IMG/VR virus record: IMGVR_UViG_2585427971_000007
Location: 1 to 22,176 of that record
Length of the DNA stretch: 22,176 nt
From: a virus
Lineage: Duplodnaviria; Heunggongvirae; Uroviricota; Caudoviricetes
Strand: one strand, 5' to 3'
The notes beneath the pieces are model-generated. The model made no database searches, was not told the DNA's origin, and saw only the letters and a program-made list of their open reading frames with translations. How positions within the stretch are numbered: position 1 is the first letter of the stretch; every line of letters begins with the position of its first letter. Both the position numbers and the translations under genes were made by a program. Below are positions 550-22,176 of the stretch, in pieces.

Positions 550-599
550 TCGTTTCGGCGCAATTTTCAGCAAACGATCAAAAGTGGTGAAAAATATCG

Positions 600-627: not shown

Positions 628-700
628 GCAACGCATCGAACGGCGGCACTGATTGCCAGACGATAATAAAATCAAGTGATTAACTGATTGCTTGATGAAT

Positions 701-776
<76 letters not shown>

Positions 777-829
777 GTTTAAAAGGCATCGGCGTCAGCG
801 GATGTCTGGCTGAAAGGCCTGAAGAATTT

Positions 830-903
830 GGCGCGTTAACAAAGCGGTTATGTAGCGGATTGCAAATCCGTCTAGTCCGGTTCGACTCCGGAACGCGCCT
901 CCA
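830..903 (+). tRNA. cysT: tRNA-Cys (anticodon GCA)
   Basis: 74-nt sequence ggcgcgttaacaaagcggttatgtagcggattgcaaatccg...ggttcgactccggaacgcgcctcca with GCA anticodon and CCA end. Confidence 0.92.
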
Positions 904-915
904 CTTTTTTCCCGA

Positions 916-1002
916 GCCCGGATGGTGGAATCGGTAGACACAAGGGATTTAAAATCCCTCGGCGTTCGCGCTGTGCGGGTTCAAGTCCCGCTCCGGGTAC
1001 CA
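916..1002 (+). tRNA. leuZ: tRNA-Leu (anticodon TAA), long variable arm
   Basis: 87-nt sequence gcccggatggtggaatcggtagacacaagggatttaaaatccctc...gggttcaagtcccgctccgggtacca; class II tRNA with TAA anticodon. Confidence 0.92.
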
Positions 1003-1043
1003 TGGGAAAGATAAGAATAAAATCAAAGCAATAAGCAGTGTCG

Positions 1044-1070
1044 TGAAACCACCTTCGGGTGGTTTTTTTG
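1044..1070 (+). terminator. rho-independent terminator of the tRNA operon (possibly bidirectional, also downstream of int)
   Basis: GC stem aaaccacc/ggtggttt with ttcg loop followed by a run of 7 T; A-rich on the 5' side. Confidence 0.8.
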
Positions 1071-1132
1071 TATCTTCTTTCTCATTTCCGAAGATGCGTC
1101 CGAAGATGATTTTTCTCTGGACGCATCATCAT

Positions 1133-2149: not shown

Positions 2150-2381
2150 TAAATATTGCTCCAAAATCAGGTTCATCATCTTTTCGCGTCGTCACCTCCT
2201 GTAAATTGCGAAATTTTATTGGGTTCATGAAATGGCCCCAGGTTGTTTTTGGGTGTCCGTCAGCCCTTTCCATGAAGAAAATTCCAGCCCGGCGAAGAGC
2301 CTCACATTGCTTTGATTTAAGTGGGCTTCCCGTCAGCTCGACCATTTCTTCTCTGGTGATTATGTCGTGATCGCTTTTCAT
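2118..2381 (-). CDS. Excisionase-like small DNA-binding protein
   Basis: 87-aa ORF immediately upstream of and overlapping the integrase start; RBS GAGGAAAGACC directly before the ATG. Confidence 0.6.
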   Translation of the reverse strand: MKSDHDIITREEMVELTGSPLKSKQCEALRRAGIFFMERADGHPKTTWGHFMNPIKFRNLQEVTTRKDDEPDFGAIFNGRKEKEPSR

Positions 2382-2541
2382 GGTCTTTCCTCATTATGTA
2401 GCTTATTGCGTCATCTGCCTTCTGGCAGGCACGGGCAATATCAGACTCGGTCAAAGTCTGTTTCCTGACGCTGGCCGACAGTCGACCAATTTTGATATCA
2501 AATGCGGAGAGCAGAGTTGCTCCCGGTTGCCATCGCAGCAT
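2317..2541 (-). CDS. Hypothetical small protein (74 aa from the ATG at 2541), C-terminus overlaps the xis start in another frame
   Basis: ATG at 2541 preceded by a GGAGG Shine-Dalgarno; basic low-complexity C-terminal tail makes the call uncertain. Confidence 0.4.
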   Translation of the reverse strand: MLRWQPGATLLSAFDIKIGRLSASVRKQTLTESDIARACQKADDAISYIMRKDHEKRSRHNHQRRNGRADGKPT

Positions 2542-2590
2542 TGTGATCCTCCGGTGTCTGGTGAATCGCAATGCTAGCGATGGTGAGTTT

Positions 2591-2773
2591 TTATTTCTGA
2601 TTAGGCGTAATCAGTTCTTGTGGGGTGAATGCCGATTTCTCCCGAGTGACCTTAATGTTTTCTGGCAGGTGTAGCCCAAGTTCGCAGCGGCTCCGTGCTT
2701 CAATAATGCCATTGGTACCATCGGCAAGTACCAGGTGAACCGCGTCACCACGCTTTAATGTGAGTTTAAGCAT
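2591..2773 (-). CDS. Hypothetical small protein (60 aa)
   Basis: Start codon overlaps the stop of the upstream 189-aa gene (ATGA overlap), suggesting translational coupling. Confidence 0.5.
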   Translation of the reverse strand: MLKLTLKRGDAVHLVLADGTNGIIEARSRCELGLHLPENIKVTREKSAFTPQELITPNQK

Positions 2774-3342
2774 TAGCGTATCCTCAGTGACCGTTCGCCG
2801 CGTTCCAGATGTGCGCCTGGTACCGGGTTTAATAACTCGGCTGGTGGTGTTTCTCCACGCGCCAGTATTTCGGCGGCAACCGCCTCCGCAGATTCAATCA
2901 CTTCTTTAATGGCTCGCTTGTTTGGTGTAATAACCGTTTCTACATCAACAAGTGACACGCCCTCATACTCATCCGGGATCTTATCTTTGCTATCGATAAT
3001 TACCCGGATAGCCCCCTGTGCATCAGTAAATGTGTTTTTTGCGGTTTTCAGTTTATCCAGGCCAGCAGCTTGCAGGCAGGTGAGCATATGCTTTCGAATT
3101 GCTTTTTCCTTGCCTTCAAAGGACGTCTTACGGGTTGCCAGGCGAGACATTTCTTCAGCGCAGGTATTGGCATTGCCCTGTAAATTACGGCAGATGACCA
3201 TCATGGCGTCCAGTTTGTCTCCCAGTTCTCCTTCCATGCCTTCAAGCGTGTCGGCGATCATCTCTGGCGTCAGTTCATCGGCGGTTTCTAACAGGTCAAT
3301 CAGACTGGCATATTCTTTTGCAATAGCGATAGCAGTGCTCAT
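2773..3342 (-). CDS. Phage early protein, Gam / Gp157-like (putative host-nuclease inhibitor); family assignment tentative
   Basis: 189-aa acidic protein with coiled-coil-like N-terminus; AGGAG RBS; start overlaps the stop of the upstream annealase gene; resemblance to Mu Gam / siphovirus Gp157 judged from memory only. Confidence 0.55.
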   Translation of the reverse strand: MSTAIAIAKEYASLIDLLETADELTPEMIADTLEGMEGELGDKLDAMMVICRNLQGNANTCAEEMSRLATRKTSFEGKEKAIRKHMLTCLQAAGLDKLKTAKNTFTDAQGAIRVIIDSKDKIPDEYEGVSLVDVETVITPNKRAIKEVIESAEAVAAEILARGETPPAELLNPVPGAHLERGERSLRIR

Positions 3343-5555
3343 GCTGTTTGCTCCTGTGCAGCGGTAAGGGCGGCGAGGCGTTCAGTTTTAATGTCGGTGA
3401 TACGGCGCAGACGTGATCCCAGATACGATGAATATTCTTTATCGCCTTTGGTTTCCGCTGCTTTCCTGTGTACATCCACTTCGCGGGCGATGAGGCCAAA
3501 TACCTTGTTTACTTCGTTGGCGGTTACCGCGGCGGCCAGCGTATTGGCAACGTTGATAAGCTTCTCATCCAGTTCCTTACGCAGACGGGTAGCATCTTCC
3601 GCATTCTCGCTGGCATTCTTGATATCAAACTCAGCTTTATTCCTCTGGCGGTATTCCGGATTGTCGTACAGGCCCATGAAAATATCGGCGCTGAATCCGA
3701 GAGGGGATAGCGCTTTCTTAACAGCATCCGTCCAGGATTTCTTCGGTGCTTCGCCGTCGCTTGTTGGTCCGTATTTAGTGTCGTAGATATAAGGTGTGCA
3801 TCCGTAAGCCTCGGACTCACCGCGTACCCCATTCAATATGTACCAGACTCTCACTTTCATGGTGTGGTGCATTTCACATAGGTACCCGCCAACACCGTCT
3901 TGAATCAGATCCCATTCTATTTTTTCACCAACCTGTTTTTTGCGAACTATTGGTGCGCCTTTATCAAAGCGCTCCTCCAGCACCTCTACCCCCCAGCCAA
4001 TACCAAATGGCCCAAATTCGCGAGTCGCTTTCATCGCTATATAAGTGCCGTTGATGGATGTGCCGCCGCCATTCTGAGAGAAAGCACTGGTGAAGCGCTC
4101 ATCGGTTTTGAATACGTTCTTCCACAATGCCAGGTTATCCGTGTCATCTGAGTCCTTTAACTCCGTTTCGATAGCTGAGATTGCATTCTGCCGCTTGTGC
4201 TCTTCGGCATGGATCCGCTCAACCAGCGCGTCAACGTTCTGCACCAGATCCTTTACCTGCTCGCTAAGTTGTTCTTGTGGAGGAGTCTCTTCTGCCAGGG
4301 TAATAGCTGCAGGTTCCCTCTGTGATACGGCGTTATTTTCAGGTACGTCATACACATGGCGAGGCGTGACAAACTGCTCACGCAACTGCTGCAAACTACG
4401 TTCTCCAGCATTTGCAGCTTCGCTTTTTTCGCCCTGATTTGAGGGTGTTTCTGACATCATCCCATCAATTGAGAATCGTCCGCCGCCGTGGTTGGTGACT
4501 TTTACATCATCCTTGGGTGCTGCTTCCTTTGGCTTCTCTTCAACAGCATTTGCATCACGCTGCCCGTTAGCTTGCAGCCAGTTGTCGATGTGACTGCGCA
4601 GGGATTGTGGGAAGTGGTACGTGTCTTTTGCGGGGGCGCTCTGAATAACACCGAATACTGATGCGCGGTCATAGGCAAGGATCTGATCCGTTGTGCGCAA
4701 GGCCATTGACCAGCGTTTAAAATCTTCCCTGTCCTGACTGATTATTTCGTCTGCCGCTTTCAGGATGCTGGGGGTGATTTTTTCCGGGGCAACAGGTAAC
4801 AGGGCGCAGGCAATTTCACGATCCAGAGTGGCGTGAGTCTGTTTGTAAGGACGTGCGGATGCTGTTTCTGGTTTTACCTCCGGCAGCATTTCATCTCGTT
4901 TACCGGGATTCTCTACCCATTTTTTTATAAATTTGGAGATAGTCCAACTGGTCGGGTTTTGTTCCTGGGTATCGCAACTTGCCAAAATTGCATGTACCAG
5001 ATTATTCAATCCAGCAATATGCATGTACTCGATGGGCTTACACGCCACCATGGCATCAAGAACGATGCGGTTAAACGCGTCAACCTCATCCTCACTGTCA
5101 GTATCACTGTTATCGAGCATCTCCAGGTATTCACGCGTCTGCACAAGCAATTCACTGTCGACTTCGTTGGCGTCGTGGCTGAACAGCAGAACGGCGGCGA
5201 ATCGTTCACGAGCCGGCAGTTTCATCAGGTCGCTAACCTGTGAGATATCTGCTGAACTGCAATCTGAATCAACAGGAGTGTTAACTACCCATTTTTCGCC
5301 ATCAAAACTGTGTTCTGTGGCAAACGTCTCATCAAACTCACCGACGCCTGGGCGCGGTTGGCCCGGGGCATCTTCCCAGATTTTAGGTTTGAAATAGTTG
5401 TCGCCGTGGTCAGGGTAGGCTTCCCACAATTTGCCGATGATGATGTTCTCGGCAACTTTTTTGTTAGGGGCGGCGATGGCGATGGCCAGCGCCGGGATCG
5501 CGCCGTTTTTGAGCGCGCCTTTTTTCGCTTCTAACAAGCCGTTAAAAATGGTCAT
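3339..5555 (-). CDS. Large early protein: N-terminal ~470 aa of unknown function fused to a C-terminal Rad52/Sak-like single-strand annealing domain
   Basis: 738-aa ORF with RBS GAGGAAAGACC; residues ~490-635 carry Rad52-family hallmarks (GGG...FGPFGIGWG ... GESEAYG ... TDAVKKALSPLGFSADIFMGLYD). Confidence 0.75.
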   Translation of the reverse strand: MTIFNGLLEAKKGALKNGAIPALAIAIAAPNKKVAENIIIGKLWEAYPDHGDNYFKPKIWEDAPGQPRPGVGEFDETFATEHSFDGEKWVVNTPVDSDCSSADISQVSDLMKLPARERFAAVLLFSHDANEVDSELLVQTREYLEMLDNSDTDSEDEVDAFNRIVLDAMVACKPIEYMHIAGLNNLVHAILASCDTQEQNPTSWTISKFIKKWVENPGKRDEMLPEVKPETASARPYKQTHATLDREIACALLPVAPEKITPSILKAADEIISQDREDFKRWSMALRTTDQILAYDRASVFGVIQSAPAKDTYHFPQSLRSHIDNWLQANGQRDANAVEEKPKEAAPKDDVKVTNHGGGRFSIDGMMSETPSNQGEKSEAANAGERSLQQLREQFVTPRHVYDVPENNAVSQREPAAITLAEETPPQEQLSEQVKDLVQNVDALVERIHAEEHKRQNAISAIETELKDSDDTDNLALWKNVFKTDERFTSAFSQNGGGTSINGTYIAMKATREFGPFGIGWGVEVLEERFDKGAPIVRKKQVGEKIEWDLIQDGVGGYLCEMHHTMKVRVWYILNGVRGESEAYGCTPYIYDTKYGPTSDGEAPKKSWTDAVKKALSPLGFSADIFMGLYDNPEYRQRNKAEFDIKNASENAEDATRLRKELDEKLINVANTLAAAVTANEVNKVFGLIAREVDVHRKAAETKGDKEYSSYLGSRLRRITDIKTERLAALTAAQEQTA

Positions 5556-5585
5556 TGGTCTTTCCTCATTACAGGTCAGTGGTTT

Positions 5586-5906
5586 TTAGTAGGGGAGCTC
5601 ATCGGTATCTGGCGTGTATTCGATGCAAAGTAACTGCTGGATTTTGTCATCGATAGCAGCAATACGCTGTTGGGCGTCGGCGACTGTTTTCTGTTTTTGT
5701 TCACGCAGTTGCTCGACCTGTAAACCGATGATGTCGATTGGCTCGGGCTGGTTAACGGTAATTTCAATTTCGCGGCTTTCCAGAAGGATGTACCTGTCTG
5801 GAAAATTTTTTGACATATCAACAGTCGCAACAAGCAGCTTTTCGTGGCTGAAAGTTGAAGTTGCATAATGAATAAAGAGTGTTACTGGGATGGTGCGCGC
5901 TTCCAT
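5586..5906 (-). CDS. Hypothetical phage early protein (106 aa)
   Basis: ATG preceded by an AAGGAG RBS; first gene of the leftward early operon. Confidence 0.6.
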   Translation of the reverse strand: MEARTIPVTLFIHYATSTFSHEKLLVATVDMSKNFPDRYILLESREIEITVNQPEPIDIIGLQVEQLREQKQKTVADAQQRIAAIDDKIQQLLCIEYTPDTDELPY

Positions 5907-6759
5907 AGCGACTCCTTGGTAATGTATACTCAGAGCCGATCAGCGAATATTGATCAGCTTCCATAGCGTCAGTGTCGTTGGTCTTTCCTCATCACAAGTT
6001 TGGTCACTTGTGATAAATCCGAATGGTTTGGTCGCCGTTCGGGGTAACTGGCCCGCCTTGTGCGGGTCTTTTGCTATCTAAAGGGTGCCGGTTACGTTTC
6101 CGGCGTCGTTATGTTTCCATTACGACCGTACAGGGCTGGTCAGGCCCGGGCTGGTCTTTCCTGTTTTGAGCTGGTCAGGCTCATGGTCAACGCTGGTCAG
6201 GCGTGGTACTTCCTCCGGTCTTTCCCTGGTGTCACGCTGCGGGTTTGGCCTCTCCTGTTGGGGACTCAGGCACAGCGATAAAACCTGGCTGTGTGAAAAA
6301 ATGGCCCATCGTGCGGACTGGGCAAAGACTAAACACAGCAAATTGATGATGGGCGCCCGGAATCGAACCGGGTAACGGGCAGGGAGTTCCCGTTAAACAC
6401 CTGTTCACCACAACCGGGAGCGCACTCCGCCATTTCAAAATTTAACGACAAAGCTCAAAGTTGAGTCGATGAAGTGCGCTCTCGTGTTGTAGCCAGGACT
6501 CTTCCCTGGTGGTCACACCGTATCGCCTTGATGGTGAATCAATCGCTCATACCTGGCTGTGGCTTGCACATTCCGGCTACCTGCTATGGAGACAACGCGT
6601 TAAGGCTCCGCTTCCATCCAGACCGCTTCGACACATGTGCCATATGCCGGTGAAGTCTTTCCCTCTGTCACCGTGTTGGCGCCGACGCGCAAAATTTGGT
6701 GCCGTCTTTCCGGCTGTCAGAACGTGTTTCTGAACAACTGCCGCTGGGTAAGCGTTGTT

Positions 6760-6870
6760 GATGAAAGTGACTTTACAATTTGTATTTGTAATGGTCAATG
6801 TGTTTTTAAAAAATAATTTGTAGTGAGGGGCAAAAAAATATTCACTGTGTAAAGGTGTTTTTGTGTTAGG
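6760..6870. promoter_or_regulatory. AT-rich putative OL/pL-type operator-promoter region downstream of the repressor gene
   Basis: Repeated TTTGTA(A/T) motifs (caatttgtatttgtaatgg, aataatttgtagtgagg) resembling those between the repressor and cro genes. Confidence 0.4.
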
Positions 6871-6995
6871 GGAAAGTTGCATGCCAGCAGCGGCTGGCCT
6901 GGAAATTTGAACTGAACTATTTTGTCTGGTTTTTGGCTTCAAGTAGTTCTTTTAGCAGTAGATCGAAGTGCTCTCTTTTTCTTTTAGCTCATTGA

Positions 6996-7328
6996 TTAAT
7001 TTATTTTTTCGCTCTCAGGCAGTCCTCTGAATAGTTGCAGTAGAGCCTGTTCTTGCGGGGTTAGTTCTTGATTGTAATTACCCGGGTGTAGTGTGGATTC
7101 ATCCAAATATTCCCCTTCATTCATGAAGAAAAAATGAACAGGGTATCCGGTCACTTTTGCTAGCTTGTCTAATTTATCTTTTCTTGGAGTTACCCCATTA
7201 CACCATGCCTGAACTGATTGAGCCGTAACCCCAATATGGCGAGCTAACTCAGATTGAGACCAGCCTAAGTCTTTTAGAATCCGTTGTAGTCGGCTAGCAA
7301 AAGCCATGTTTTTCGTTTTTGTGTTCAT
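6996..7328 (-). CDS. Phage repressor, short XRE-family helix-turn-helix protein with no peptidase domain
   Basis: HTH signature WSQSELARHIGVTAQSVQAWCNG; divergent from a Cro-like gene; start uncertain (alternatives at 7343 TTG, 7328 ATG, 7307 ATG). Confidence 0.8.
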   Translation of the reverse strand: MNTKTKNMAFASRLQRILKDLGWSQSELARHIGVTAQSVQAWCNGVTPRKDKLDKLAKVTGYPVHFFFMNEGEYLDESTLHPGNYNQELTPQEQALLQLFRGLPESEKIN

Positions 7329-7343
7329 ACCGTAAGGATACAA

Positions 7344-7426
7344 GGTTTAATTGTAGGGAGCATTGCAAATATAATTTGTAATTACAGTTATTGTTTGTAA
7401 TGATGACGCGGACACAAGGAGTCCAT
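7344..7426. promoter_or_regulatory. Divergent promoter/operator region of the immunity switch
   Basis: Intergenic region between divergent repressor and cro genes with repeated TTTGTAAT motifs (aatttgtaattacag, ttgtttgtaatgatg) and TTGCAA -35-like hexamer. Confidence 0.55.
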
Positions 7427-7657
7427 ATGGATAAACAACTGCAAGACAAAATTCTTTCCGTAATGAGTCAATCCGAGTTAGGGCGGCGATTAGGGAAAAA
7501 ACCACAAACGGTAAGCCTCTGGTTCAAAGGACGGGTTCCCGGTGAAGAGGTTTTGCGCACATCTGAAGCTCTTGAATGGCGCGTGACCCCTCATGATCTT
7601 AGACCGGATCTTTACCCAAACCCAGATGACAGCTTGCCTAAAACGGAAGCAGCTTAA
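7427..7657 (+). CDS. Cro/Apl-like HTH regulator (76 aa from the ATG at 7427)
   Basis: AAGGAG RBS 5 nt upstream of the ATG; HTH motif SQSELGRRLGKKPQTVSLWFKG; divergent from the repressor. Confidence 0.8.
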   Translation: MDKQLQDKILSVMSQSELGRRLGKKPQTVSLWFKGRVPGEEVLRTSEALEWRVTPHDLRPDLYPNPDDSLPKTEAA

Positions 7658-7715
7658 CTGTTGGTGAGCCCCAAATCTGATTAAGCGTAATCAATTTTTA
7701 GCGACAGGAGACGCT

Positions 7716-8192
7716 ATGGAAAACCAAGAGGAATTACAAAAAGAGATTTTGACCTGGGCGGCAAGGGCAGGGCAGGAACTCGTCACGATTGAAATCTGCC
7801 GGGCCTGGTTCAGTCAGGGACGCAATGATGAGTTGAGACTACATGAATTTGAGGACGCGGACGGCAACGTGGACTGGAGAGCCATCAACAACAATCGGCA
7901 GAAAATCTTTCGCTGGTTACGTGGCGAGACAACGGCGGCGCGCCGAAAAACTCAGGTGCTGGCCAGTGTGATGAAAGCCGTGCTACCCGCAGAACGGCGG
8001 GCACGTCTGGAGTCGCCGGGCGATCCCGTTTTGCTGGCAACGCTGGCGGCAAAAGAAGGGGTGGAAGCGATTAACGCTGTACATCTCCACTTCGCGCCAG
8101 AGTTAACTATTCAGGAAATTGACGAAGCAATAGCGGCGCTGGTAGCGACGCGAGGAGCAGTGATACGCACTGCGCAAGACCACCATGCATGA
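7716..8192 (+). CDS. Phage regulatory protein, CII-like / YdaT-like (tentative)
   Basis: 158-aa ORF with AGGAG RBS directly downstream of cro; functional call rests on position in the switch operon only. Confidence 0.45.
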   Translation: MENQEELQKEILTWAARAGQELVTIEICRAWFSQGRNDELRLHEFEDADGNVDWRAINNNRQKIFRWLRGETTAARRKTQVLASVMKAVLPAERRARLESPGDPVLLATLAAKEGVEAINAVHLHFAPELTIQEIDEAIAALVATRGAVIRTAQDHHA

Positions 8193-8231
8193 GCGCCTGA
8201 CCAGCGTTTAACTTATACCGAGGAAAGACCG

Positions 8232-8456
8232 ATGTTAAGACATATTGACCGCATTACCTGGCGTAACGGCTGGCACCTGAATGGACGCCCGGCACATGTT
8301 GCAGAGATCCGCCCCATATTCGATGGCCGCGTCGCAGCTGCACGTTCTGTATGGGAAAAGTACGAAGAAGAAAAAGCGAAACTGCGTGAGCAAAATCTCT
8401 CTGGCGCTGCCTATGAGGCTGGCTGTCGCGTTCTCTCAGAGGCTTTGGGCATATGA
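8232..8456 (+). CDS. Hypothetical protein (74 aa)
   Basis: ATG preceded by GAGGAAAGACC RBS; last gene of the rightward early operon before the convergent junction. Confidence 0.5.
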   Translation: MLRHIDRITWRNGWHLNGRPAHVAEIRPIFDGRVAAARSVWEKYEEEKAKLREQNLSGAAYEAGCRVLSEALGI

Positions 8457-8597
8457 ACATCCTCCCGTTACTTGATAGACCCATAGCCTTCCAGAGAAGT
8501 TTTATCCGTCTTGAAATGGTGATGCGCCGCGCGATAAATGCACTCTATCTTGTGCGATAAATGGCATCCACGCGGCGTTTCATTATTTGAAAAAGAA

Positions 8598-9170
8598 TTA
8601 CATTTCAGGTTGCGTTATGACAGTCCCAACAGGGTGATAGCGGTAGATCGTTGACAGTCCAATATCATAGATAATTGCCAGCCGCTTTCTGTCATACCCT
8701 TTCTGGAGCAATCTTGCGATCTGCTCATGCTGCTCCTTCGTCAGTTTCGGGCGACGTCCTCCAACTCTTCCTTGTGCTCGCGCAGCAGCCAGTCCTGCCA
8801 GCGTGCGCTCAACTATCAGTTCACGCTCCATTTCTGCCAGTGCACCCATCATATGAAAAAAGAACCTTCCCATCGGAGTGCTGGTATCGATTGAATCCGT
8901 CAGACTGCGAAAATTGACACCTTTTGCGCGTAGCTCTTCTGTGAGAGCAATGAGGTGTTTCATTCTTCTACCCAACCGATCCAGCTTCCAGACCACCAAT
9001 GTATCCCCTCTTTTAAGGCACTTTAAAGCGCGTTTCAGGCCTGGTCGTTCCGACTTGGTTCCGCTCATTTTGTCCTCAAAAATCTGTTCACATCCTGCGC
9101 ACATTAATGCATTGCGTTGCAAATCTGTGTTTTGGTCATTTGTTGACACACGTATGTAGCCAATCAGCAT
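8598..9170 (-). CDS. Serine DNA invertase, Pin/Gin/Hin/Cin family (190 aa)
   Basis: N-terminus MLIGYIRVSTNDQNTDLQRNAL with catalytic Ser and a C-terminal HTH; AAGGGAG RBS; lies adjacent to the invertible fibre segment; start set at the internal ATG at 9170 rather than the longer ORF to 9299. Confidence 0.92.
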   Translation of the reverse strand: MLIGYIRVSTNDQNTDLQRNALMCAGCEQIFEDKMSGTKSERPGLKRALKCLKRGDTLVVWKLDRLGRRMKHLIALTEELRAKGVNFRSLTDSIDTSTPMGRFFFHMMGALAEMERELIVERTLAGLAAARAQGRVGGRRPKLTKEQHEQIARLLQKGYDRKRLAIIYDIGLSTIYRYHPVGTVITQPEM

Positions 9171-9226
9171 TAAAAATACTCCCTTTTGAGTGGTTAAAGT
9201 ACTGAGATAATGTGGGGAGGATTTGA

Positions 9227-9252
9227 GAGATAAACGTTGGTTTGGGGGAAGG
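9227..9252. promoter_or_regulatory. Putative invertase crossover site, left (gix/hix-like)
   Basis: Junction where inverted-repeat identity begins; reverse complement reads tcccccAAACCAAcgtttatctctc, resembling Din-family sites (AAACC..GGTTT). Confidence 0.5.
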
Positions 9253-9436
9253 CTCTGCACTGCCTGTTGGTGTGCCTGTTCCATGGCCCACCGCCACACC
9301 GCCAGCAGGCTGGTTAAAGTGCGACGGGCGCGCCTTTACAAAAGAACAATATCCTGTTCTGGCCAGAGTCTACCCGACCCTCCGTCTTCCCGATTTACGC
9401 GGTGAGTTTATCCGTGGATGGGACGACGGGCGCAAG
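9237..9436. repeat. Inverted repeat, left copy (~200 bp, 3 mismatches in the first 50 bp, otherwise identical) encoding the shared part of the fibre C-terminus
   Basis: Direct comparison with the reverse complement of 10656-10852. Confidence 0.9.
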
Positions 9437-9715
9437 ATTGACGAGGGGCGTAAGTTGCTTTCATGGCAGAAAGGTACACTGGTCGGCGGTCATGACGATA
9501 ACGATTCTTCGCTTGATATCTCGTACATGAGTAACGGAAATAATATTGACTATGGCGGCGATAAGGTGTTTGCGGGGAATTACCGTAGCGATTATTTGTG
9601 GTACGTAATTCTGGGAGGAACAAACAGTCGCGCAAAAGCCGAATTAAACGGAGCATTCTTTAACATAACCCGCCCCCGCAATATCGCGTTTAACTATATC
9701 GTGAGGGCGGCGTGA
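9242..9715 (+). CDS. Alternative tail-fibre C-terminal cassette (promoterless, silent in this orientation)
   Basis: First ~62 aa identical to the corresponding part of the expressed fibre (GEGSALPVGVPVPWPTATPPAGWLKCDGRAF...), then divergent; ends with the conserved NYIVRA motif; opposite strand to the fibre. Confidence 0.8.
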   Translation: MGEGSALPVGVPVPWPTATPPAGWLKCDGRAFTKEQYPVLARVYPTLRLPDLRGEFIRGWDDGRKIDEGRKLLSWQKGTLVGGHDDNDSSLDISYMSNGNNIDYGGDKVFAGNYRSDYLWYVILGGTNSRAKAELNGAFFNITRPRNIAFNYIVRAA

Positions 9716-9721
9716 TACCGT

Positions 9722-10336
9722 TCAACTGGCAAGTGCCAGTGGCGCTTCCGGCCAGCTGATTTCAGGTGCCGTGCTGATATCCAGTGCGTTCAGCTCGTCG
9801 ATATAATCCAGCACGGCGTTCAGTTTTGCCGTTTCTTCTGGTGTCAGACTGCGACCAGCACGCAGTTTGAGGTTGATAAGATCGACTGACGCCATCGCCT
9901 GTTTCACCCGTTGCTGGCGTTGCTGTCTGGCAACCTCCAGTTCTGCGGCTCGCTGCCGTTCAGTATCGGTTACCCACGCCTCACCGTTCCAGGTATCCCA
10001 TGGCGTGGCTGGCTGTTTTGTGGTGGTGTCCGCCGGGTAATCACCCGGTTGGGTAATCAGAACAGGGTTACCGTTCTCCGTGCTGTATACCGTCTCGCCG
10101 CGGTGATCAGGCACATGCTCCCACCCGTTCAGCGTGGCAGTCCGGCAAACCACGTAACCCGAAATTGCCTCCGGCGGTGCATCGGCGCACGAATGTGCCG
10201 GAGTACCCACCCCAAGGGCGAGATACTCCACAGAGGATGAGGTGTATTCCCGGGTTTCCTCGTCATAGTGATATACAGTGATATCGCCCGCTACAGTGGC
10301 GATACCGTTTTCATCCAGAACTGCAGTGTTACTCAT
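9722..10336 (-). CDS. Tail fibre assembly protein (P2 gpG / Mu U-like)
   Basis: 204-aa ORF whose start overlaps the fibre stop (TAATG); position and composition typical of assembly chaperones. Confidence 0.8.
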   Translation of the reverse strand: MSNTAVLDENGIATVAGDITVYHYDEETREYTSSSVEYLALGVGTPAHSCADAPPEAISGYVVCRTATLNGWEHVPDHRGETVYSTENGNPVLITQPGDYPADTTTKQPATPWDTWNGEAWVTDTERQRAAELEVARQQRQQRVKQAMASVDLINLKLRAGRSLTPEETAKLNAVLDYIDELNALDISTAPEISWPEAPLALAS

Positions 10337-12345
10337 TAAACTGCCCTCACAATGTAATTAAGTGCAATGCTACGGGGTCTGACAGTGATACCCTTCGCAT
10401 ACCCGCTTCTGATAGAGGTCAGAATAGTAGCCTGCATACCATTGTCTGACATTGCCACGACAGGATCGCTGAATGTTGTCCCGTCCGGCATTTTAAAGCT
10501 GCCCTCACGAAGGTCTGTAATGGAATCTTCATTGTTGAATCCCATGCCGACTATCCCCGAGGTTCCCGTAGTGTCCTGGTTATAATAATCCAGCATTGCT
10601 GTTCTTAACAGCGTTGCCCCTTGTGCGGACAGCAACTTACGTCCTGTATCAACTTTGCGCCCGTCGTCCCATCCACGGATAAACTCACCGCGTAAATCGG
10701 GAAGACGGAGGGTCGGGTAGACTCTGGCCAGAACAGGATATTGTTCTTTTGTAAAGGCGCGCCCGTCGCACTTTAACCAGCCTGCTGGCGGTGTGGCGGT
10801 GGGCCATGGAACCGGTACACCAACAGGCAATGCAGAGCCTTCCCCCAAACCAAGGTAATTGAGGACATCTTTTATACTGCCCTTAGCGATAATAGCGCGA
10901 CCAATAGCTGTAAGGGTTGCCAGCGCTGCGCGGTCTGCTCCGGTAAAATAAGGCAACCGATCTGCTGCAGTGGCAAGTCCTGCCAGAGCAGTGAGCGTGG
11001 CATCTGCCGGTTGTTTTCCGTTTGCCAGATCGTATGCAGCCTTGACCGCTTTCGGTGTGGCGGCCAGTATTTCAGACGTGCTGTTGATAGCACTGCTCAG
11101 TTGTACGGTGCCTTTTGCCGTCAGCGAGGCAGCAGGCACTCCCGTTATCTGACTCCACGGGTGAGTGTGGCTGACGGGCGCCTTGCCGGCTGCAAGGTCG
11201 TATGCAGCCTTGACCGCCTTCGGCGTGGCAGCCTCAATTTCTGATTGACTGTCCGTGGCGCTGCTCAGTTGTACGGTGCCTTTTGCCGTCAGTGAAGCCG
11301 CAGGCACTCCCGTTATCTGACTCCACGGGTGAGTGTGGCTGGCAGGCGCCTTGCCGGCTGCCAGGTCGTATGCAGCCTTGACCGCTTTCGGTGTGGCGGC
11401 CAGTATTTCAGACGTGCTGTTGATGGCACTGCTCAGTTGTACGGTGCCTTTTGCCGTCAGCGAGGCAGCTGGCACTCCCGTTATCTGACTCCACGGGTGA
11501 GTGTGGCTGACGGGCGCCTTGCCGGCTGCAAGGTCGTATGCAGCCTTGACCGCCTTCGGCGTGGCAGCCTCAATTTCTGATTGACTGTCCGTGGCGCTGC
11601 TCAGTTGTACGGTGCCTTTTGCCGTCAGTGAAGCCGCAGGCACTCCCGTTATCTGACTCCACGGGTGAGTGTGGCTGGCAGGCGCCTTGCCGGCTGCCAG
11701 GTCGTATGCAGCCTTGACCGCTTTCGGTGTGGCGGCCAGTATTTCAGACGTGCTGTTGATGGCACTGCTCAGTTGTACGGTGCCTTTTGCCGTCAGCGAG
11801 GCAGCTGGCACTCCCGTTATCTGACTCCACGGGTGAGTGTGGCTGACGGGCGCCTTGCCGGCTGCAAGGTCGTATGCAGCCTTGACCGCCTTCGGCGTGG
11901 CAGCCTCAGTTTCTGATTGACTGTCCGTGGCGCTGCTCAGTTGTACGGTGCCTTTTGCCGTCAGTGAAGCCGCAGGCACTCCCGTTATCTGACTCCACGG
12001 GTGAGTGTGGCTGGCAGGCGCCTTGCCGGCTGCCAGGTCGTATGCAGCCTTGACCGCTTTTGGTGTGGCGGCCAGCGTTTCAGAGGTGCTGTTGGTGGCA
12101 CTGCTCAGTTGGGTGAACCCCTTAGCTGTCAGTGTCGCGTCCGGGTGGTTACGGGAACGTACGTGTTCAGCCAGTGACTGTGCGGCTTCCTCCGTTTTCT
12201 TCTTCAGCCATTTCGTCCTGTTTGCCAGTTGCCGGGGGGCTCGATTTGATATCCCGTCTGCACCACCCAGAACCGGATCTGATGTCTCCAGTTGATAGAT
12301 ATTTTCTTCCCACTTTTCTGTTTCATTCAGGTTTCCCATAATCAA
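10336..12345 (-). CDS. Tail fibre protein (P2 gpH-like), C-terminus lying in the invertible segment
   Basis: 669-aa ORF; N-terminus and the motif HPDATLTAKGFTQLSSATNSTSETLAATPKAVKA recalled from P2 gpH-type fibres; internal tandem repeats. Confidence 0.9.
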   Translation of the reverse strand: MIMGNLNETEKWEENIYQLETSDPVLGGADGISNRAPRQLANRTKWLKKKTEEAAQSLAEHVRSRNHPDATLTAKGFTQLSSATNSTSETLAATPKAVKAAYDLAAGKAPASHTHPWSQITGVPAASLTAKGTVQLSSATDSQSETEAATPKAVKAAYDLAAGKAPVSHTHPWSQITGVPAASLTAKGTVQLSSAINSTSEILAATPKAVKAAYDLAAGKAPASHTHPWSQITGVPAASLTAKGTVQLSSATDSQSEIEAATPKAVKAAYDLAAGKAPVSHTHPWSQITGVPAASLTAKGTVQLSSAINSTSEILAATPKAVKAAYDLAAGKAPASHTHPWSQITGVPAASLTAKGTVQLSSATDSQSEIEAATPKAVKAAYDLAAGKAPVSHTHPWSQITGVPAASLTAKGTVQLSSAINSTSEILAATPKAVKAAYDLANGKQPADATLTALAGLATAADRLPYFTGADRAALATLTAIGRAIIAKGSIKDVLNYLGLGEGSALPVGVPVPWPTATPPAGWLKCDGRAFTKEQYPVLARVYPTLRLPDLRGEFIRGWDDGRKVDTGRKLLSAQGATLLRTAMLDYYNQDTTGTSGIVGMGFNNEDSITDLREGSFKMPDGTTFSDPVVAMSDNGMQATILTSIRSGYAKGITVRPRSIALNYIVRAV
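10656..10852. repeat. Inverted repeat, right copy (partner of 9237-9436)
   Basis: Reverse complement matches 9237-9436. Confidence 0.9.
10841..10866. promoter_or_regulatory. Putative invertase crossover site, right (gix/hix-like)
   Basis: tcccccAAACCAAGGTaattgagga at the boundary between the constant fibre region and the inverted repeat. Confidence 0.5.
11010..12140. repeat. Tandem array inside the fibre gene: ~6.7 copies of a 168-bp (56-aa) unit in two alternating variants (336-bp super-period)
   Basis: Protein repeats ASLTAKGTVQLSSA..ATPKAVKAAYDLAAGKAP(A/V)SHTHPWSQITGVP; plus-strand shadow ORFs recur every 336 bp with identical sequence. Confidence 0.9.
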
Positions 12346-16359: not shown

Positions 16360-17240
16360 ACACTCCTCGTCAGTATTCTGGCGGCCATTGCACTTAATCC
16401 CGGAGACATGCGGTTGAATGCTGTGCCGGCGGCGTTAAGCTGCCCGGAAACGGTATCCAGAGCACCTGCAATATTTCTTTTGTCCACACCACTCAGCGCA
16501 GACTGTGCCTGCTGTACATACGTGGCTGCTTCGCTGGCTGTTCTGGCCAGACTGATGGCATCGGGCATGGATTCAGAGAGTGCGTTAAACGCCGGAACAC
16601 TTTTCCCCAGAGCCCCGGAGATATTACCCAGTCCGCTCATCAGCCCCGGCACACGGGTCAGTGCGACAACGGGGTTATCCTTCATTTTCTGTGTCACCCG
16701 AACGGCGCTGATAGTGGTCTGGAGTACAGACTGCGCCTGTTTCGCATAGTTGACGCCGTTGCGGATGAACTGCGCCACCCCTGAAGGTGAAGGAATGGCA
16801 CCGGAGACCGCCCCGACACCCGGGAGCTTCGTGCGTATTGCCGGTGGTTGCAGAGGATTTTTCGGATCACCGGTGTATTCCCGGAGAGACACGGTGGCAC
16901 TGACAGCCAGCACGTTACCGGTGCTGTCTGTCTGCTCGCTGGTTGCGGTCACATCGGTAATCACGAACCAGCCACGATAGTCACCGTTGCCGAAGACCAG
17001 CGCCAGTGCCTGATGGGCTTTCATGGCTGTTCGCAGTCTCGCCAGCTCCACATCGGGTACACAATAATGCTGATGGAAAACCAGAGTTATCTGGATTTCG
17101 TCCAGCCTGTCGCCGACGAACTGCAGGCCAGGCTTACCCCCGATGCGGGCATGCTCCGCATAATCGACGCCGAACGTGGCCTCGAAGCCGTCCCAGTAGG
17201 TAATCAGCTCAAACTCAATATCACCCAGTACGGCAAACAT
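16356..17240 (-). CDS. Tail protein with gpU-like N-terminal domain and C-terminal extension
   Basis: 294-aa ORF between tape measure and gpX/gpD genes; family call tentative. Confidence 0.55.
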   Translation of the reverse strand: MFAVLGDIEFELITYWDGFEATFGVDYAEHARIGGKPGLQFVGDRLDEIQITLVFHQHYCVPDVELARLRTAMKAHQALALVFGNGDYRGWFVITDVTATSEQTDSTGNVLAVSATVSLREYTGDPKNPLQPPAIRTKLPGVGAVSGAIPSPSGVAQFIRNGVNYAKQAQSVLQTTISAVRVTQKMKDNPVVALTRVPGLMSGLGNISGALGKSVPAFNALSESMPDAISLARTASEAATYVQQAQSALSGVDKRNIAGALDTVSGQLNAAGTAFNRMSPGLSAMAARILTRSV

Positions 17241-17491
17241 CAGCGGTACTCCTTACGTTGTTTCTGAGCCAGCAGACGCTCCAGCATTTTTTCCAGCTCA
17301 TGCAGGCTCATATTCAGGGCGCCAGTCAGTCCGGCAGGCGCTGTGGTTTCCCTGCCATTGAGGAAAAACTGAGGATTAAAGCTGACCTGGATACCACCAG
17401 ACGTTCCACCGCCGGTTGCAGCTGCACCACGGCCTGAATATCCGGCAGCCAGGATTTCAGGCGAGGGGATACGGGGAACATCCGGTGTCAT
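17240..17491 (-). CDS. Small hypothetical tail-module protein (83 aa), Gly/Ala-rich
   Basis: Start overlaps the tape-measure stop (ATGA); low-complexity composition lowers confidence. Confidence 0.45.
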   Translation of the reverse strand: MTPDVPRIPSPEILAAGYSGRGAAATGGGTSGGIQVSFNPQFFLNGRETTAPAGLTGALNMSLHELEKMLERLLAQKQRKEYR

Positions 17492-20451
17492 CTCATTTGC
17501 CAGACGTTGCCCTGGTAAAATCGATGCCCGGGTGGAGAGCGGAATAGCGGCATGGAAGACAAACTATTGATTACGGCTCCGATCGCATTTTTAGCAGACG
17601 ACATAAACCCATTGATATCGGGCAACGGCATACTGAAGCGAACACCTGAAGTGTTATCCCGTATTTCTGGCCCCTGAATGCTCACGGGCATTCTGGGGAG
17701 CAGTTCACTGGCCATTCGCTGCCCGGCCAGAGCTGCAAGCGGAGTGGTCCGCTGCAGGCCAATGGCGGCCCCCTGCGCGATATTGTCACCAAAGCCCATA
17801 AACACGCGGCTCGGCGAATGAATGCCCAGCTTTTCGCTGAACCAGCCACTGATGCTGTCACCCATTCCGGTTACACTGGATTTGAGCGACTCCCATTTGT
17901 TTTTGATACCGTTAATCAGACCGTCGACAAGATGGCCACCGAAGTCGGTGAACTTTGCCGGCAGATCAACACCAAGATATTTCAGCGCAGCTGCAAAGGC
18001 TTTATAGAGCAGACCTGCCGGCGACCAGTTAATCAGCAGCTTACCAGTTCCCGCGATACCGCCGTTAAAGGCTTCCTGAATGTCAGCCCAGCACTGTTTA
18101 AACCAGCTACTGATGCTGTCACCCATTCCGGTTACACTGGATTTGAGCGACCCCCATTTGTTTTTGATACCGTTAATCAGACCGTCGATAAGATGGCCAC
18201 CGAAGTCGGTGAACTTTGCCGGCAGAGCAACGCCGAAATATTTCAGCGCAGCCGCAAAGGCTTTATAGAGCAGGCCTGCCGGCGACCAGTTAATCAGCAA
18301 CTTACCAGTTCCCGCGATACCGCCGTTAAAGGCTTCCTGAATGTCAGCCCAGCACTGTTTAAACCAGCTACTGATGCTGTCACCCATTCCGGTTACACTG
18401 GATTTGAGCGACCCCCATTTGTTTTTGATACCGTTAATCAGACCGTCGATAAGATGGCCACCGAAGTCGGTGAACTTTGCCGGCAGAGCAACGCCGAAAT
18501 ATTTCAGCGCAGCCGCAAAGGCTTTATAGAGCAGGCCTGCCGGCGACCAGTTAATCAGCAACTTACCAATTCCCACAATGCCGCCGTTAAAGGCTTCCTG
18601 AATGTCTGCCCAGCGCTGTTTAAACCAGCCACTGACTGCCCCCCAGTTGCGGTAGATAAGGTAAGCTGCTGCCGCGACAGCGGTGATAACGAGACCGATG
18701 GGATTCATCATCAGCGCACGTCCAATCCAGAGAACAGCACGTCCGGCGAGCATAATTCCGCGAACCAGCCCCCCGGAGAGCACGCCACTCAGTGTTCTGG
18801 CTCCTTTGGCGACGGCGCTAAATCCGGTCACCAGCCAGCGGAGCTTACCGCCTTGCCCCAGTGCGAGCGACAGACGAAGCCAGTTGGCCCGAAGTAAAAC
18901 AGCATTTTTCCAGACACTTACAAAGGGGGAAATAAGGAGATTCAGCCCCAGTTTGAGACCAACAGTCGCTATCTTAATCGCAAGGAGCGCACTGATGAGC
19001 TTAAAAGCCCCACTGACAAATTGCGGGTGAGTCGCTACCCAGTGTTTTGCCCCCTGAATGAGTGGAAGCAGTTCCTGAGTCAGAGAAATAAAAGATGGAG
19101 CTAATTGATCGCCCAGCGTAATTGCCAGATCACGACTGCTGACCATAAGTGCTTTAGTGGCTTCAAGGGGAGATTTCAGCCGCTGATCATAAGCACTGGC
19201 AAGCAAATCGTTATCCGCAGCCCTGAGAGCACCGGCACGGATCTCTCGATATCTGTCCATGTTGGCCAGCATCGGGCGGATAAATGCCATGACCTGCATA
19301 TCCGCGAACATATCGCCCAGACCAAAGTTTTTCGCCAGAGCCTGAAGTGCCTCATCTCTTGCCGTATCATTCTTTATTTTCATGGCTGATTTGAAGCCGG
19401 CCAGCGCTTCGGGGCTTTTGGCATTGAGGTAACGTTCTATAACACTCAACATCCCTTCAATCGGAGAGATCCCCGCAGCTTTATAACTCGCAATAGATCC
19501 CTGCAAATCAATACCCAGATCAGCAAACTGTTTCTGAGTATCGCGGGCAAAAATTTTGGTAAGAAAGTTTTTAAAATTATTGGCTGCTTCGTCGGTGGAA
19601 CCTGCACCGATTTTTGCTATCTGGAGACTGGCCCCGATTTCAGCAACAGCCTCTTTTCCACTGGCAATACCCGCCATCATTGGGGCCAGGGACTGCATCC
19701 ACTTGACCTGATCCGGGATTTCAAATGACCCCTGGTCACCGGCATAAGCCATAATATTCTGAACGGCACCAAAATCTCTGGCCGCACCTTTCAGGGAGTT
19801 TTGCCAGACTGCGGCCACTTTTGCCCAGTCCTGAGCAGACGTGCGTGTTGCCGTTGCCGCGCGGGCAATATCCGGCATCAGAAAACCGATATCTGACACA
19901 TTATCAATATTGTCGCTGATGAGTGAACCCACCGCCTCCTGCAGCTCATCCTGATACTGATTGTATTTAAGCGCCCAGCCTTTTATCTGTCCGGCAAGTG
20001 CATCCCGCGTTTTATTGTCATATTTTGCGGTGATCGACATATCAATCATTTTGTCCTGAAAAGACATGGACTGCTGAACGGCAGGGGAAACCGTATGATA
20101 AACAGTCTGTGCCATGCCATACGCTTCAATCCCCTGACCATACAGCGCCATGCGGTTAGCTTTCAGCGCATCACTGGTAGCGGATGCCGCTGACAGACGG
20201 CGCTGCTGGCGCTCAATTTGCTCCATGGTGCGGCTTACCCGCAGCAGCTCGCTGTTGAGATGCTGCATCCGGGAAGAACCCAGTTGACCATAACGTTCTG
20301 TTGCACGGGTTAAAGCGTTCTGACGTTCCTGCAGGCGGCGTGAGGTATCGCTCAGGGAATCAAGCGCACGGCGGGTACCGCTCATTGCAGAACGGAATGT
20401 GCTACCAATCATCCCGCCGATAACAACGCCGACTGAAAACTGTCCCGACAT
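17488..20451 (-). CDS. Tail tape measure protein
   Basis: 987-aa ORF with GGAGG RBS, coiled-coil-rich N-terminus, hydrophobic central segments, internal tandem repeats; position after the chaperone pair. Confidence 0.9.
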   Translation of the reverse strand: MSGQFSVGVVIGGMIGSTFRSAMSGTRRALDSLSDTSRRLQERQNALTRATERYGQLGSSRMQHLNSELLRVSRTMEQIERQQRRLSAASATSDALKANRMALYGQGIEAYGMAQTVYHTVSPAVQQSMSFQDKMIDMSITAKYDNKTRDALAGQIKGWALKYNQYQDELQEAVGSLISDNIDNVSDIGFLMPDIARAATATRTSAQDWAKVAAVWQNSLKGAARDFGAVQNIMAYAGDQGSFEIPDQVKWMQSLAPMMAGIASGKEAVAEIGASLQIAKIGAGSTDEAANNFKNFLTKIFARDTQKQFADLGIDLQGSIASYKAAGISPIEGMLSVIERYLNAKSPEALAGFKSAMKIKNDTARDEALQALAKNFGLGDMFADMQVMAFIRPMLANMDRYREIRAGALRAADNDLLASAYDQRLKSPLEATKALMVSSRDLAITLGDQLAPSFISLTQELLPLIQGAKHWVATHPQFVSGAFKLISALLAIKIATVGLKLGLNLLISPFVSVWKNAVLLRANWLRLSLALGQGGKLRWLVTGFSAVAKGARTLSGVLSGGLVRGIMLAGRAVLWIGRALMMNPIGLVITAVAAAAYLIYRNWGAVSGWFKQRWADIQEAFNGGIVGIGKLLINWSPAGLLYKAFAAALKYFGVALPAKFTDFGGHLIDGLINGIKNKWGSLKSSVTGMGDSISSWFKQCWADIQEAFNGGIAGTGKLLINWSPAGLLYKAFAAALKYFGVALPAKFTDFGGHLIDGLINGIKNKWGSLKSSVTGMGDSISSWFKQCWADIQEAFNGGIAGTGKLLINWSPAGLLYKAFAAALKYLGVDLPAKFTDFGGHLVDGLINGIKNKWESLKSSVTGMGDSISGWFSEKLGIHSPSRVFMGFGDNIAQGAAIGLQRTTPLAALAGQRMASELLPRMPVSIQGPEIRDNTSGVRFSMPLPDINGFMSSAKNAIGAVINSLSSMPLFRSPPGHRFYQGNVWQMR
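17840..18640. repeat. Tandem array inside the tape-measure gene: ~3 copies of a 261-bp (87-aa) unit
   Basis: Protein repeats WFKQCWADIQEAFNGGIAGTGKLLINWSPAGLLYKAFAAALKYFGVALPAKFTDFGGHLIDGLINGIKNKWGSLKSSVTGMGDSIS; plus-strand shadow ORFs recur every 261 bp. Confidence 0.9.
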
Positions 20452-20526
20452 AGTGGTTAACCTCCGGGGAAGGTGAAAAGACGTGAGGGGATAACGCAGA
20501 ACAGCCGCTACTGGCGGCTGTCTGTA

Positions 20527-20630
20527 CTATGATTTGTCGCCGTACTCGCTTTTTATTTGCTCTTCAGCCTGCTCCAGCCACATCTCCAGATCGTCAGTAT
20601 CGAGGGCATCAATCTCCCCCGGCTGAAACC
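20527..20630 (-). other. Putative frameshift extension (E'-like) of the tail assembly chaperone
   Basis: Second frame stays open past the chaperone stop and encodes an acidic tail (DALDTDDLEMWLEQAEEQIKSEYGDKS); G-run CCGGGGGAG followed by UGA at the overlap. Confidence 0.55.
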
Positions 20631-20944
20631 GGAACCATCTCGCCAGCAGCCCCTGCGCCTGCGTCAGCGCCCTGGTTGCTCTCACCCATCCCCGTGATGA
20701 GCTGAAATCGTTTCTGTAACTGCAGGTAATCAGCCAGATCCATATTGTCGAGATCTTCCGGGAGAAGACCAGTACTGCGGGCAATCAGCGGTTCGTCCCA
20801 GTCTGCCGGGTTTTTGCTGATTTTGCGCACCTGCTTCAGGTCTTTTACCGTCAGGCGTTTCAGTTCAACCAGCTCAATTCTGGTGCCTGCAGCAGTGGTG
20901 AAGGGATAAGACAATTTAAAAGTATCGGATGGGGTCTGTGACAT
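20609..20944 (-). CDS. Tail assembly chaperone (P2 gpE-like)
   Basis: 111-aa ORF with CAGGAG RBS immediately upstream of the tape-measure gene, overlapped by a second ORF in another frame. Confidence 0.75.
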   Translation of the reverse strand: MSQTPSDTFKLSYPFTTAAGTRIELVELKRLTVKDLKQVRKISKNPADWDEPLIARSTGLLPEDLDNMDLADYLQLQKRFQLITGMGESNQGADAGAGAAGEMVPVSAGGD

Positions 20945-21041
20945 GATTGTGCTCCTGTGTAAGTTCAGGGCAGTATGTCGGGAGAAGCGCGTGACGGATA
21001 TTAAAGGAGATTAAGAAGAAGGGGCCGGAGCCCCTGTGATG

Positions 21042-21290
21042 TCAGCAAGTGCGAAACCCCTTGCAGTTACGCAGGAAAGCGATGAGAAGCGTCTTTCCCT
21101 CAGATTTGCCGATGCCGGAGAACCAGTGGTCGGGAGGCTCCCATGCTTCAATCAAATCCGCCAGTTTGCGGGCCTTTGAACGTGTGCAGTCAATCGGGTC
21201 ATTGGTTTTACGGGTATTAAAAAGGGTTTCCACCCCCGGAATATCAAGGAGGGTAAACCACGTACCATTTGACATGCCAGTGCCGCACAT
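21042..21290 (-). CDS. Hypothetical tail-module protein (82 aa)
   Basis: ATG preceded by a strong AAGGAGG RBS; lies between the tube and chaperone genes. Confidence 0.5.
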   Translation of the reverse strand: MCGTGMSNGTWFTLLDIPGVETLFNTRKTNDPIDCTRSKARKLADLIEAWEPPDHWFSGIGKSEGKTLLIAFLRNCKGFRTC

Positions 21291-21324
21291 CGTCCTCCTT
21301 TATCCGTCAGTTCAACACTCACCG

Positions 21325-21816
21325 TCAGCCCCCGATATTGATACGGTAGTCAGTCAGTTGATCAACACCGCCGACCCGGAAGATGTTGGCCAGATAGTCC
21401 AGTTGCAGCAGCTCTTCACCATCCAGTACCTGTCTGATATACGTGCAGGTGAAGCTACTGGAGAACTCGGCGTTCTCGTGCTGTTTGAACGTCCCCAGCG
21501 GGTTCTTCTTGAACATAATCGTCAGGAAGGTGACCAGCGGGATTTCGTCAATCAGCCCCTGCGAGCTGTAGCGCTGGACGCTGGAACGACACTGCAGTGC
21601 CAGCGACCTGTACGGGTTCGCGGCAGACAGCATCGGCATCGCGGTAAAAGCTGTTCCATTTGATTTCGCCTTCCAGTTTGTCAAAACCAGCCGGGAGTTC
21701 CACCTTACCCACCATCCCCAGCGCCTTGTGTTCCTGCATAATCATGGAGACATCGGGGAGTTTAACTTCCTCAGCCCGTCCCAGCAGGTTAGTACCATCC
21801 AGATAGATGTTGGCAT
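21325..21816 (-). pseudogene. Tail tube protein (P2 gpFII-like), reading frame interrupted twice
   Basis: Tube-like sequence is split across frames: N-terminal part NANIYLDGTNLLGRAEEVKLPDV...KLEGEIKWNSF in one frame with no usable start, C-terminal part ...FKKNPLGTFK...NIFRVGGVDQLTDYRINIGG in another; family match judged from recalled P2 FII features. Confidence 0.5.
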
Positions 21817-21834
21817 TTCGTGATGCGGTTTATC

Positions 21835-22176
21835 TCAATCTTTGACATCAGTTGCCCCTTTCAGGGTTAACAGGTATTCCGAGGTGATCTCAGTCTCAAA
21901 CGTCAGTCGCTCCAGCGGCGGTGGTGGCGTATATTTGTAGCTCAGCAACAGGTGCCCGGCGGCCAGCTCCGTCTCCGGATTGCGGGCCGGATCAAACCAG
22001 CAACGGAAGCCCAGTACCGCACCATCACCAGTCATTTTGCGACCGTAGGCGTTGACCGACTCCGTCAGTGCATCAATCAGCGCCTGAGTAATCGGCATGT
22101 CGATGTACTGGCTGAAATAACGAATGGACTCGTTGATCACATCACCGGTGCGGCGAACGTTCTCAAAGTTACGCAT
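21835..22176 (-). CDS. Probable tail sheath protein, C-terminal fragment (5' end beyond the window)
   Basis: ORF open to the window edge, immediately upstream of the tube gene; assignment by synteny only. Confidence 0.5.
   Translation of the reverse strand: MRNFENVRRTGDVINESIRYFSQYIDMPITQALIDALTESVNAYGRKMTGDGAVLGFRCWFDPARNPETELAAGHLLLSYKYTPPPPLERLTFETEITSEYLLTLKGATDVKD

Follow-up and report, generated by a model that had tools for sequence, protein, structure and literature searches.

Private homopolymer-type indels, most likely sequencing errors, underlie an apparently broken tail tube gene in a BcepMu-like Escherichia coli prophage

Results

The window is the whole stretch of DNA that was analysed (22,176 nt; positions 1 to 22,176 of IMG/VR record IMGVR_UViG_2585427971_000007). 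Its first 8519 positions carry pgsA, three tRNAs and a lambdoid prophage, and from 8520 to the window end it is occupied by an unrelated, BcepMu-like prophage. The genes of the latter follow one another on the minus strand in the order sheath, tube, a 93-aa open reading frame (ORF), chaperone, tape measure, gpU/X/D, baseplate, fibre and serine invertase, and this order, from sheath through invertase, is the same as in phage PhiKM and in the E. coli prophages that encode the tube protein WP_162832341.1. The 3′ end of the sheath gene (21835-22176), identified by alignment and protein comparison, runs off the window. Downstream of the tube gene are the hypothetical 93-aa gene (21042-21322), of which only residues 16-93 align in one frame, and an intact tail assembly chaperone gene (20609-20944; 111 aa) with a profile match to PF10109. 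An ORF in the -1 frame of the chaperone gene runs to 20527, about 30 codons past the stop, and overlaps it at the G5 run 20616-20620; this extension would represent the expected gpE/E+E′-type programmed frameshift of contractile-tail phages. The tape measure gene (17240-20451) contains in-frame tandem repeats (261 nt x 3 at 17840-18635), and its product differs in length among strains, with 896, 983 and 1070 aa recorded elsewhere.

The right end of the BcepMu-like prophage lies at 8520-8545 on the plus strand (TGATGCGCCGCGCGATAAATG...) and was recognized as the same end in three strains. This end (TGATGCGCCGCGCG...) is flanked by a lambdoid gene in the window, a site that differs from those in strain SK1144 (ssuB) and strain AVS0575 (irp2). 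Since each of the three strains shows a different, unrelated sequence next to this end, the element appears to be transposable and not site-specific. The window stops short of the prophage's left part; related records contain genes for the transposase, Mu F, portal and gp27. We classify the element as Mu-like and transposable, with a predicted Mu-type head and a predicted P2-type contractile tail. At the junction 8519/8520, the prophage end is joined to the interior of the lambdoid gene (a homologue of SK1144 WP_001023813.1), and none of 5426 RefSeq complete E. coli genomes contains this junction. It could be a real new transposition or an assembly misjoin such as those in the 'complete' genome of the ST131 strain NA114, in which prophage arrangements were assembly artefacts (PMC4134206).

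The prophage also carries an invertible tail-fibre segment (8601-10856). Two inverted repeats of 229 nt (9234-9462 and 10628-10856; 95% complementary) flank 1165 nt containing alternative fibre C-termini and fibre-assembly genes, and a Gin/Hin-type serine recombinase gene (8601-9170) adjoins the segment. The tail fibre gene at 11023-12111 has in-frame tandem repeats of its own (168/336-nt units x 6.5/3.2). The invertible segment resembles the inversion system of prophage Phi2 in the ST131 strain EC958, which has inverted repeats of ~227 nt and occupies the ssuB/pepN site (PMC4134206). These ~227-nt repeats, together with the position near ssuB/pepN in SK1144, suggest that the prophage in the window is the counterpart of EC958 Phi2.

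The tail tube gene (P2 FII-like, PF04985) was placed by profile match and by alignment to an intact gene at 21325-21848 on the minus strand, where it begins with the ATG at 21848-21846 (MSKIEINRIT) and ends with the TGA at 21327-21325. This start codon falls inside the 3′ end of the sheath gene and, in a third frame, outside the range 21325-21837 that the initial annotation had assigned to the tube. When two extra bases are removed, a 173-aa tube protein is restored, and this protein matches PF04985 (Phage tail tube protein FII) over profile positions 2-165 of 165 with a score of 180.5 bits (cut-off 22.4; E 2.9e-53). Over its 173 aa the repaired protein shows no difference from the tube of Escherichia phage PhiKM (PQ738613.1), a member of the genus Bcepmuvirus, or from WP_162832341.1, which is annotated as 'phage major tail tube protein' in prophages of E. 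coli (100% identity in both cases); its identity to the BcepMu and phiE255 tubes is 67%. An intact gene identical to the repaired one is present in hundreds of E. coli genomes. Furthermore, residues 8-172 match the R2 pyocin tube in sequence (E 1.5e-14; PDB 3j9q, 5w5e, 6pyt), and the gene stands where a PF04985 gene would be expected, directly after the sheath and before the PF10109 chaperone and the PF10145 tape measure. The tubes of P2 (FII) and of R-type pyocins occupy the same place right after the sheath and share the full-length PF04985 match, but they are distant in sequence, and the element in the window is neither a P2 lysogen nor a tailocin. Tube proteins of the P2 FII type stack as rings within the sheath. 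What lies here is the usual tube gene of a transposable, BcepMu-like prophage of E. coli; the gene is already known, and its product, as predicted after repair, is a catalogued protein.

The PhiKM tube and WP_162832341.1 are encoded by a single ORF, whereas no uninterrupted full-length tube ORF exists in the window, although one is present in relatives. The gene measures 527 nt here, compared with 525 nt (with stop) in intact copies, and the protein is distributed over three frames, with residues 1-10 in frame A, 11-71 in frame B and 72-173 in frame C. Read from ATG 21848, the native frame as written reaches a stop after 19 codons (MSKIEINRITKCQHLSGWY). Frame B encodes NANIYLDG...FYRDA and frame C encodes MLSAANPYR...INIGG, and on the PF04985 profile these pieces cover positions 5-66 and 70-165, respectively. 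The initial annotation had described tube-like sequence divided between reading frames on the minus strand, and ORF and frame reading bore this out; it had, however, counted two frames where three are used, with positions that are 2, then 1, then 0 modulo 3. Its further observations that the N-terminal frame is closed by a stop at 21830-21832 and has no start codon before NANIYLDG also held: TAA 21832-21830 closes frame B upstream, and the first start codon in that frame is ATG 21745. Similarly, the proposed ORF lengths of ~85 and ~100 codons agree with the measured values of about 88 codons from N11 up to the 21548 stop and 102-119 codons up to the 21325 stop.

The minus strand of 21250-21900 was aligned with the intact tube gene annotated in E. 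coli SK1144 (WP_162832341.1). Over these 651 bp there were no substitutions and four single-base indels, each of which lengthens or shortens a run of identical bases, and two of the four lie within the tube gene. The first (21816-21818) is a +1 insertion after codon 10, from AA to AAA on the minus strand (TT to TTT on the plus strand), by which ACG AAT GCC becomes ACG AAA TGC. The second (21635-21636) is a +1 insertion after codon 71, from GCG to GCCG on the minus strand (G to GG on the plus strand), by which GAT GCG ATG becomes GAT GCC GAT G. Each insertion duplicates a neighbouring base. The lesion in the tube gene is more than a product of chance, and the rest of the 651-bp stretch matches the intact reference base for base.

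This alignment revised the positions and the arithmetic of the lesions as first proposed. The frame switch had been estimated at 21575-21600, which falls inside the zone where both ORFs are open (21548-21684), but the intact gene puts the second switch at 21635/6. Two mutually compensating indels ~225 bp apart had also been suggested; the insertions are in fact 181 bp apart and, as both are +1, they accumulate to +2, so that compensation is ruled out by frame arithmetic. The ATG at 21816 does share the frame of the C-terminal part of the tube, as had been noted, but as a possible start it is irrelevant, opening an ORF of only 24 codons.

When every difference from the closest references was tallied along the whole window, the picture extended beyond the tube. 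The window as a whole contains eight private indel events, seven of a single base and one deletion of a 3-bp repeat unit, in five genes of two unrelated prophages; they are located at homopolymers or short repeats. The two tube insertions appear here, in plus-strand terms, as G1 to G2 at 21635 and T2 to T3 at 21816 (both versus AVS0575), and the six events outside the tube fall in the sheath (two), the 93-aa gene, the tape measure and a lambdoid repressor-like gene (two). In the sheath gene, C5 to C4 at 21855-21858 (G5 to G4 on the minus strand) changes the C-terminus from ...LKGGN to ...LKGATDVKD, and CTGCTG to CTG at 22108-22110 is an in-frame change of QQ to Q. The 93-aa gene is frameshifted by C3 to C2 at 21277-21278 (GGG to GG on the minus strand); these three events were likewise called against AVS0575. 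In the tape measure gene, G3 to G2 at 17549-17550 moves the last ~100 codons to another frame. The remaining two events, called against SK1144, are T6 to T5 at 6976-6980 and, 28 bp away, T7 to T6 at 7004-7009, both in a helix-turn-helix (HTH) repressor-like gene of the lambdoid prophage (6917-7307, minus strand; census and protein comparison). This lambdoid prophage adjoins pgsA and tRNA-Leu, and the rest of the 8.5-kb flank equals ST131-type genomes base for base.

Positions 1-8519 differ from SK1144 by no substitution and only the two T-run deletions, and 18040-22176 differs from AVS0575 by no substitution and five indel events, so that the cleanly comparable 12.6 kb (1-8519 and 18040-22176) holds no private substitution and seven indel events. 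There are 15 substitutions relative to AVS0575 upstream of 18040, mostly in repeat-bearing segments of the fibre and tape measure genes. For 22 other genes, the encoded proteins match those of the references at 100% identity, save for one substitution in gpD and the repeat-variable fibre; signs of decay beyond the indels, whether substitutions in the 12.6 kb or changes in these 22 neighbouring genes, were not found. All five single-base deletions fall in reference runs of at least three bases (T6, T7, G3, C3 and C5), a context that accounts for 17% of window bases. The events are also clustered, with five of the eight within 831 bp (P about 4.5e-4) and two further events 28 bp apart, and two genes are each struck twice. 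Inspected by eye, the indel sites showed no obvious Dam or Dcm methylation motifs, a possible nanopore signature.

Comparison with the same prophage in other strains, which the initial annotation had proposed, showed an intact, single-ORF tube gene. Among the 637 complete RefSeq genomes of E. coli in which the tube region is present, none has either tube insertion (best identity 99.4%). The sheath-end deletions are absent from the 636 genomes with that locus (best identity 99.0%, equal to a 3-bp gap), and the T-run deletions are absent from the 436 genomes with the HTH gene (best identity 99.6%, equal to two gaps); for all three loci, the shortfall from 100% equals the gaps exactly. We had considered the 3-bp sheath deletion and the T-run deletions as natural polymorphisms, and rejected them as such on their absence from these 636 and 436 genomes, respectively. 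None of the eight window alleles, those of the tape measure and the 93-aa gene included, was found in a complete RefSeq E. coli genome with the locus concerned or in about 30 fetched related loci. In an exact-pattern scan of IMG/VR, GTDB representative genomes and JGI metagenomes, both tube alleles gave zero matches, and the intact allele at the first lesion, used as a positive control, was recovered from 19 IMG/VR contigs. Thus no lesion was found to be shared by independent isolates or assemblies, as would be the case for a genuine pseudogene.

The predicted products gave a similar result. The out-of-frame product of the second tube frame was not among about 15 billion proteins, and the 987-aa tape measure product of the window had no match on exact look-up. 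Eight possible gene calls from the broken genes likewise yielded no allele-specific product on exact look-up; the only ones on record were two start-variant fragments, one comprising the 102-aa C-terminus of the tube and the other 77 aa from the 93-aa gene, and both also arise through other lesions or gene calls. The 102-aa fragment comes from more than 24 contigs. In these the gene is interrupted either by a gap of Ns or by a different lesion (a nonsense codon, another indel or a rearrangement), and none of these contigs has the insertions seen in the window.

Other broken copies of the tube gene do exist. In L026 the gene has a nonsense codon (TGG to TGA), in L031 it is broken by a deletion, among other internal deletions, and in L024 and L027 a rearrangement has fused the tube gene, at codon ~72, with the early region. 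GCA_045584255.1 (L023) has many split genes (portal, sheath and tape measure), which is typical of an unpolished assembly, and several further broken copies are mere N gaps or belong to obviously low-quality assemblies.

Discussion

What, then, do the eight private indels represent? The initial annotation had named an inactivated tube gene in a defective prophage on the one hand and sequencing errors on the other. This was the right pair of alternatives, and the evidence favours sequencing or assembly error. We consider it very probable that all eight indels are sequencing or consensus errors of the homopolymer type, which would have arisen in silico and not in vivo. A homopolymer-prone platform, or an assembly with locally thin coverage, could have given a wrong consensus at the eight sites, and a local dip in coverage or quality may have produced the cluster in which five of the eight events share 831 bp. 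Homopolymer context alone does not decide the matter, since real slippage and sequencing errors both prefer homopolymers. In mutation-accumulation studies of E. coli, indels make up about one-tenth of wild-type spontaneous mutations, and they are a minority even in mismatch-repair mutants. As indels form such a small minority of these spectra, seven of them with no substitution would be very improbable as real mutations. Furthermore, the indels strike two unrelated prophages, which ties them to the sequence record rather than to the decay of a single element.

The leading alternative is that the indels are real mutations. They would have inactivated not only the tube gene but also the 93-aa gene, the tape measure and the end of the sheath, leaving the prophage a tail-defective remnant. 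We regard this as unlikely, as we do its corollary that such a remnant may still transpose, replicate or lyse the cell, but without infectious particles. The tube ORF as written closes so early that a full-length product is impossible, and frameshifts in the structural genes of a prophage would be tolerable to the host, for which these genes are dispensable and under no selection. The tube gene has also been broken independently elsewhere (the nonsense codon in L026 and the deletion in L031), and all of the indels lie in slippage-prone contexts, homopolymers being preferred by slippage in vivo as well. However, real mutation would have to account for private indels without private substitutions in the cleanly comparable 12.6 kb, for two of the eight events falling in an unrelated prophage, and for two genes being struck twice each. 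Runs of one or two bases are poor substrates for slippage, yet both tube insertions lie in such runs. Moreover, no allele is common to any of the 436-637 close relatives, and the remaining tail genes are all 100% conserved.

Everything other than sequencing error and a real defective prophage is, taken jointly, very improbable. A version of the real-mutation reading in which local bursts of frameshifting disabled the tail module of the BcepMu-like prophage soon after its transposition, and likewise the repressor of the lambdoid prophage into which it had inserted, is very doubtful. Still less probable is its possible cause, a localized error-prone process (DinB/Pol IV acting in double-strand-break repair or transpositional replication) that would have made real indels together. 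The clustering of five events in 831 bp and of two others within 28 bp is what such a burst would leave, and Pol IV favours single-base frameshifts in runs. These are, however, mainly -1 deletions, whereas +1, -1 and -3 events are mixed here; the second small cluster lies in the other prophage, about 10 kb from the next event; and the predictions of an error-prone burst do not differ from those of locally low read quality.

The least credible proposal is programmed recoding, in which the tube protein would be made by two +1 ribosomal frameshifts or by transcriptional slippage. Phage tail modules do use frameshifting, though in the chaperone gene (here 20609-20944). Recoding signals of this class are conserved among relatives, but here the signal is absent from all of them: none of the 637 near-identical genomes has either shift, and they make the same protein from one ORF. 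Two independent +1 events would be needed, and neither ACG AAA TGC nor GAT GCC GAT contains a slippery motif or heptamer. With all relatives having a single ORF and neither site being slippery, programmed frameshifting is in practice excluded.

Sequencing error of the kind that we favour, homopolymer indels as in 454, Ion Torrent or long-read-only assemblies, has a close precedent. When the 454 and PacBio assemblies of one ST131 strain were compared, single-base indels, chiefly within homopolymer tracts, accounted for almost all discrepancies (Forde et al., 2014; PMC4134206). The window is like this published signature in that its differences are indels only, occur in runs, are private to one sequence and accompany a prophage junction unseen elsewhere. 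It is unlike the classic 454 error context in that two of its insertions lie in runs of just one or two bases. It also differs from PhiKM and WP_162832341.1 in more than the tube, where two +1 insertions spread the protein over three frames, as the neighbouring genes carry private indels too.

In summary, the apparent break in the tube gene is most likely not a real feature, and the main value of this analysis lies in quality control. Read at face value, the record would cause the prophage to be called defective and five genes to be annotated as pseudogenes, and its frameshifts would feed false 'broken gene' or 'recoding' signals to downstream scans. A set of private indels that occur only in runs, without substitutions and across unrelated loci, can serve as a flag for the source assembly. 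Contractile tails require tube, sheath and tape measure. For this established reason, a prophage that was literally as written, with no full-length tube, an altered sheath C-terminus and a tape measure lacking its last ~100 residues, would be predicted not to assemble a tail. If the indels were real, they would amount to no more than the routine, strain-specific loss of function of a well-known phage gene, and the tube locus would rank as a strain-private pseudogene.
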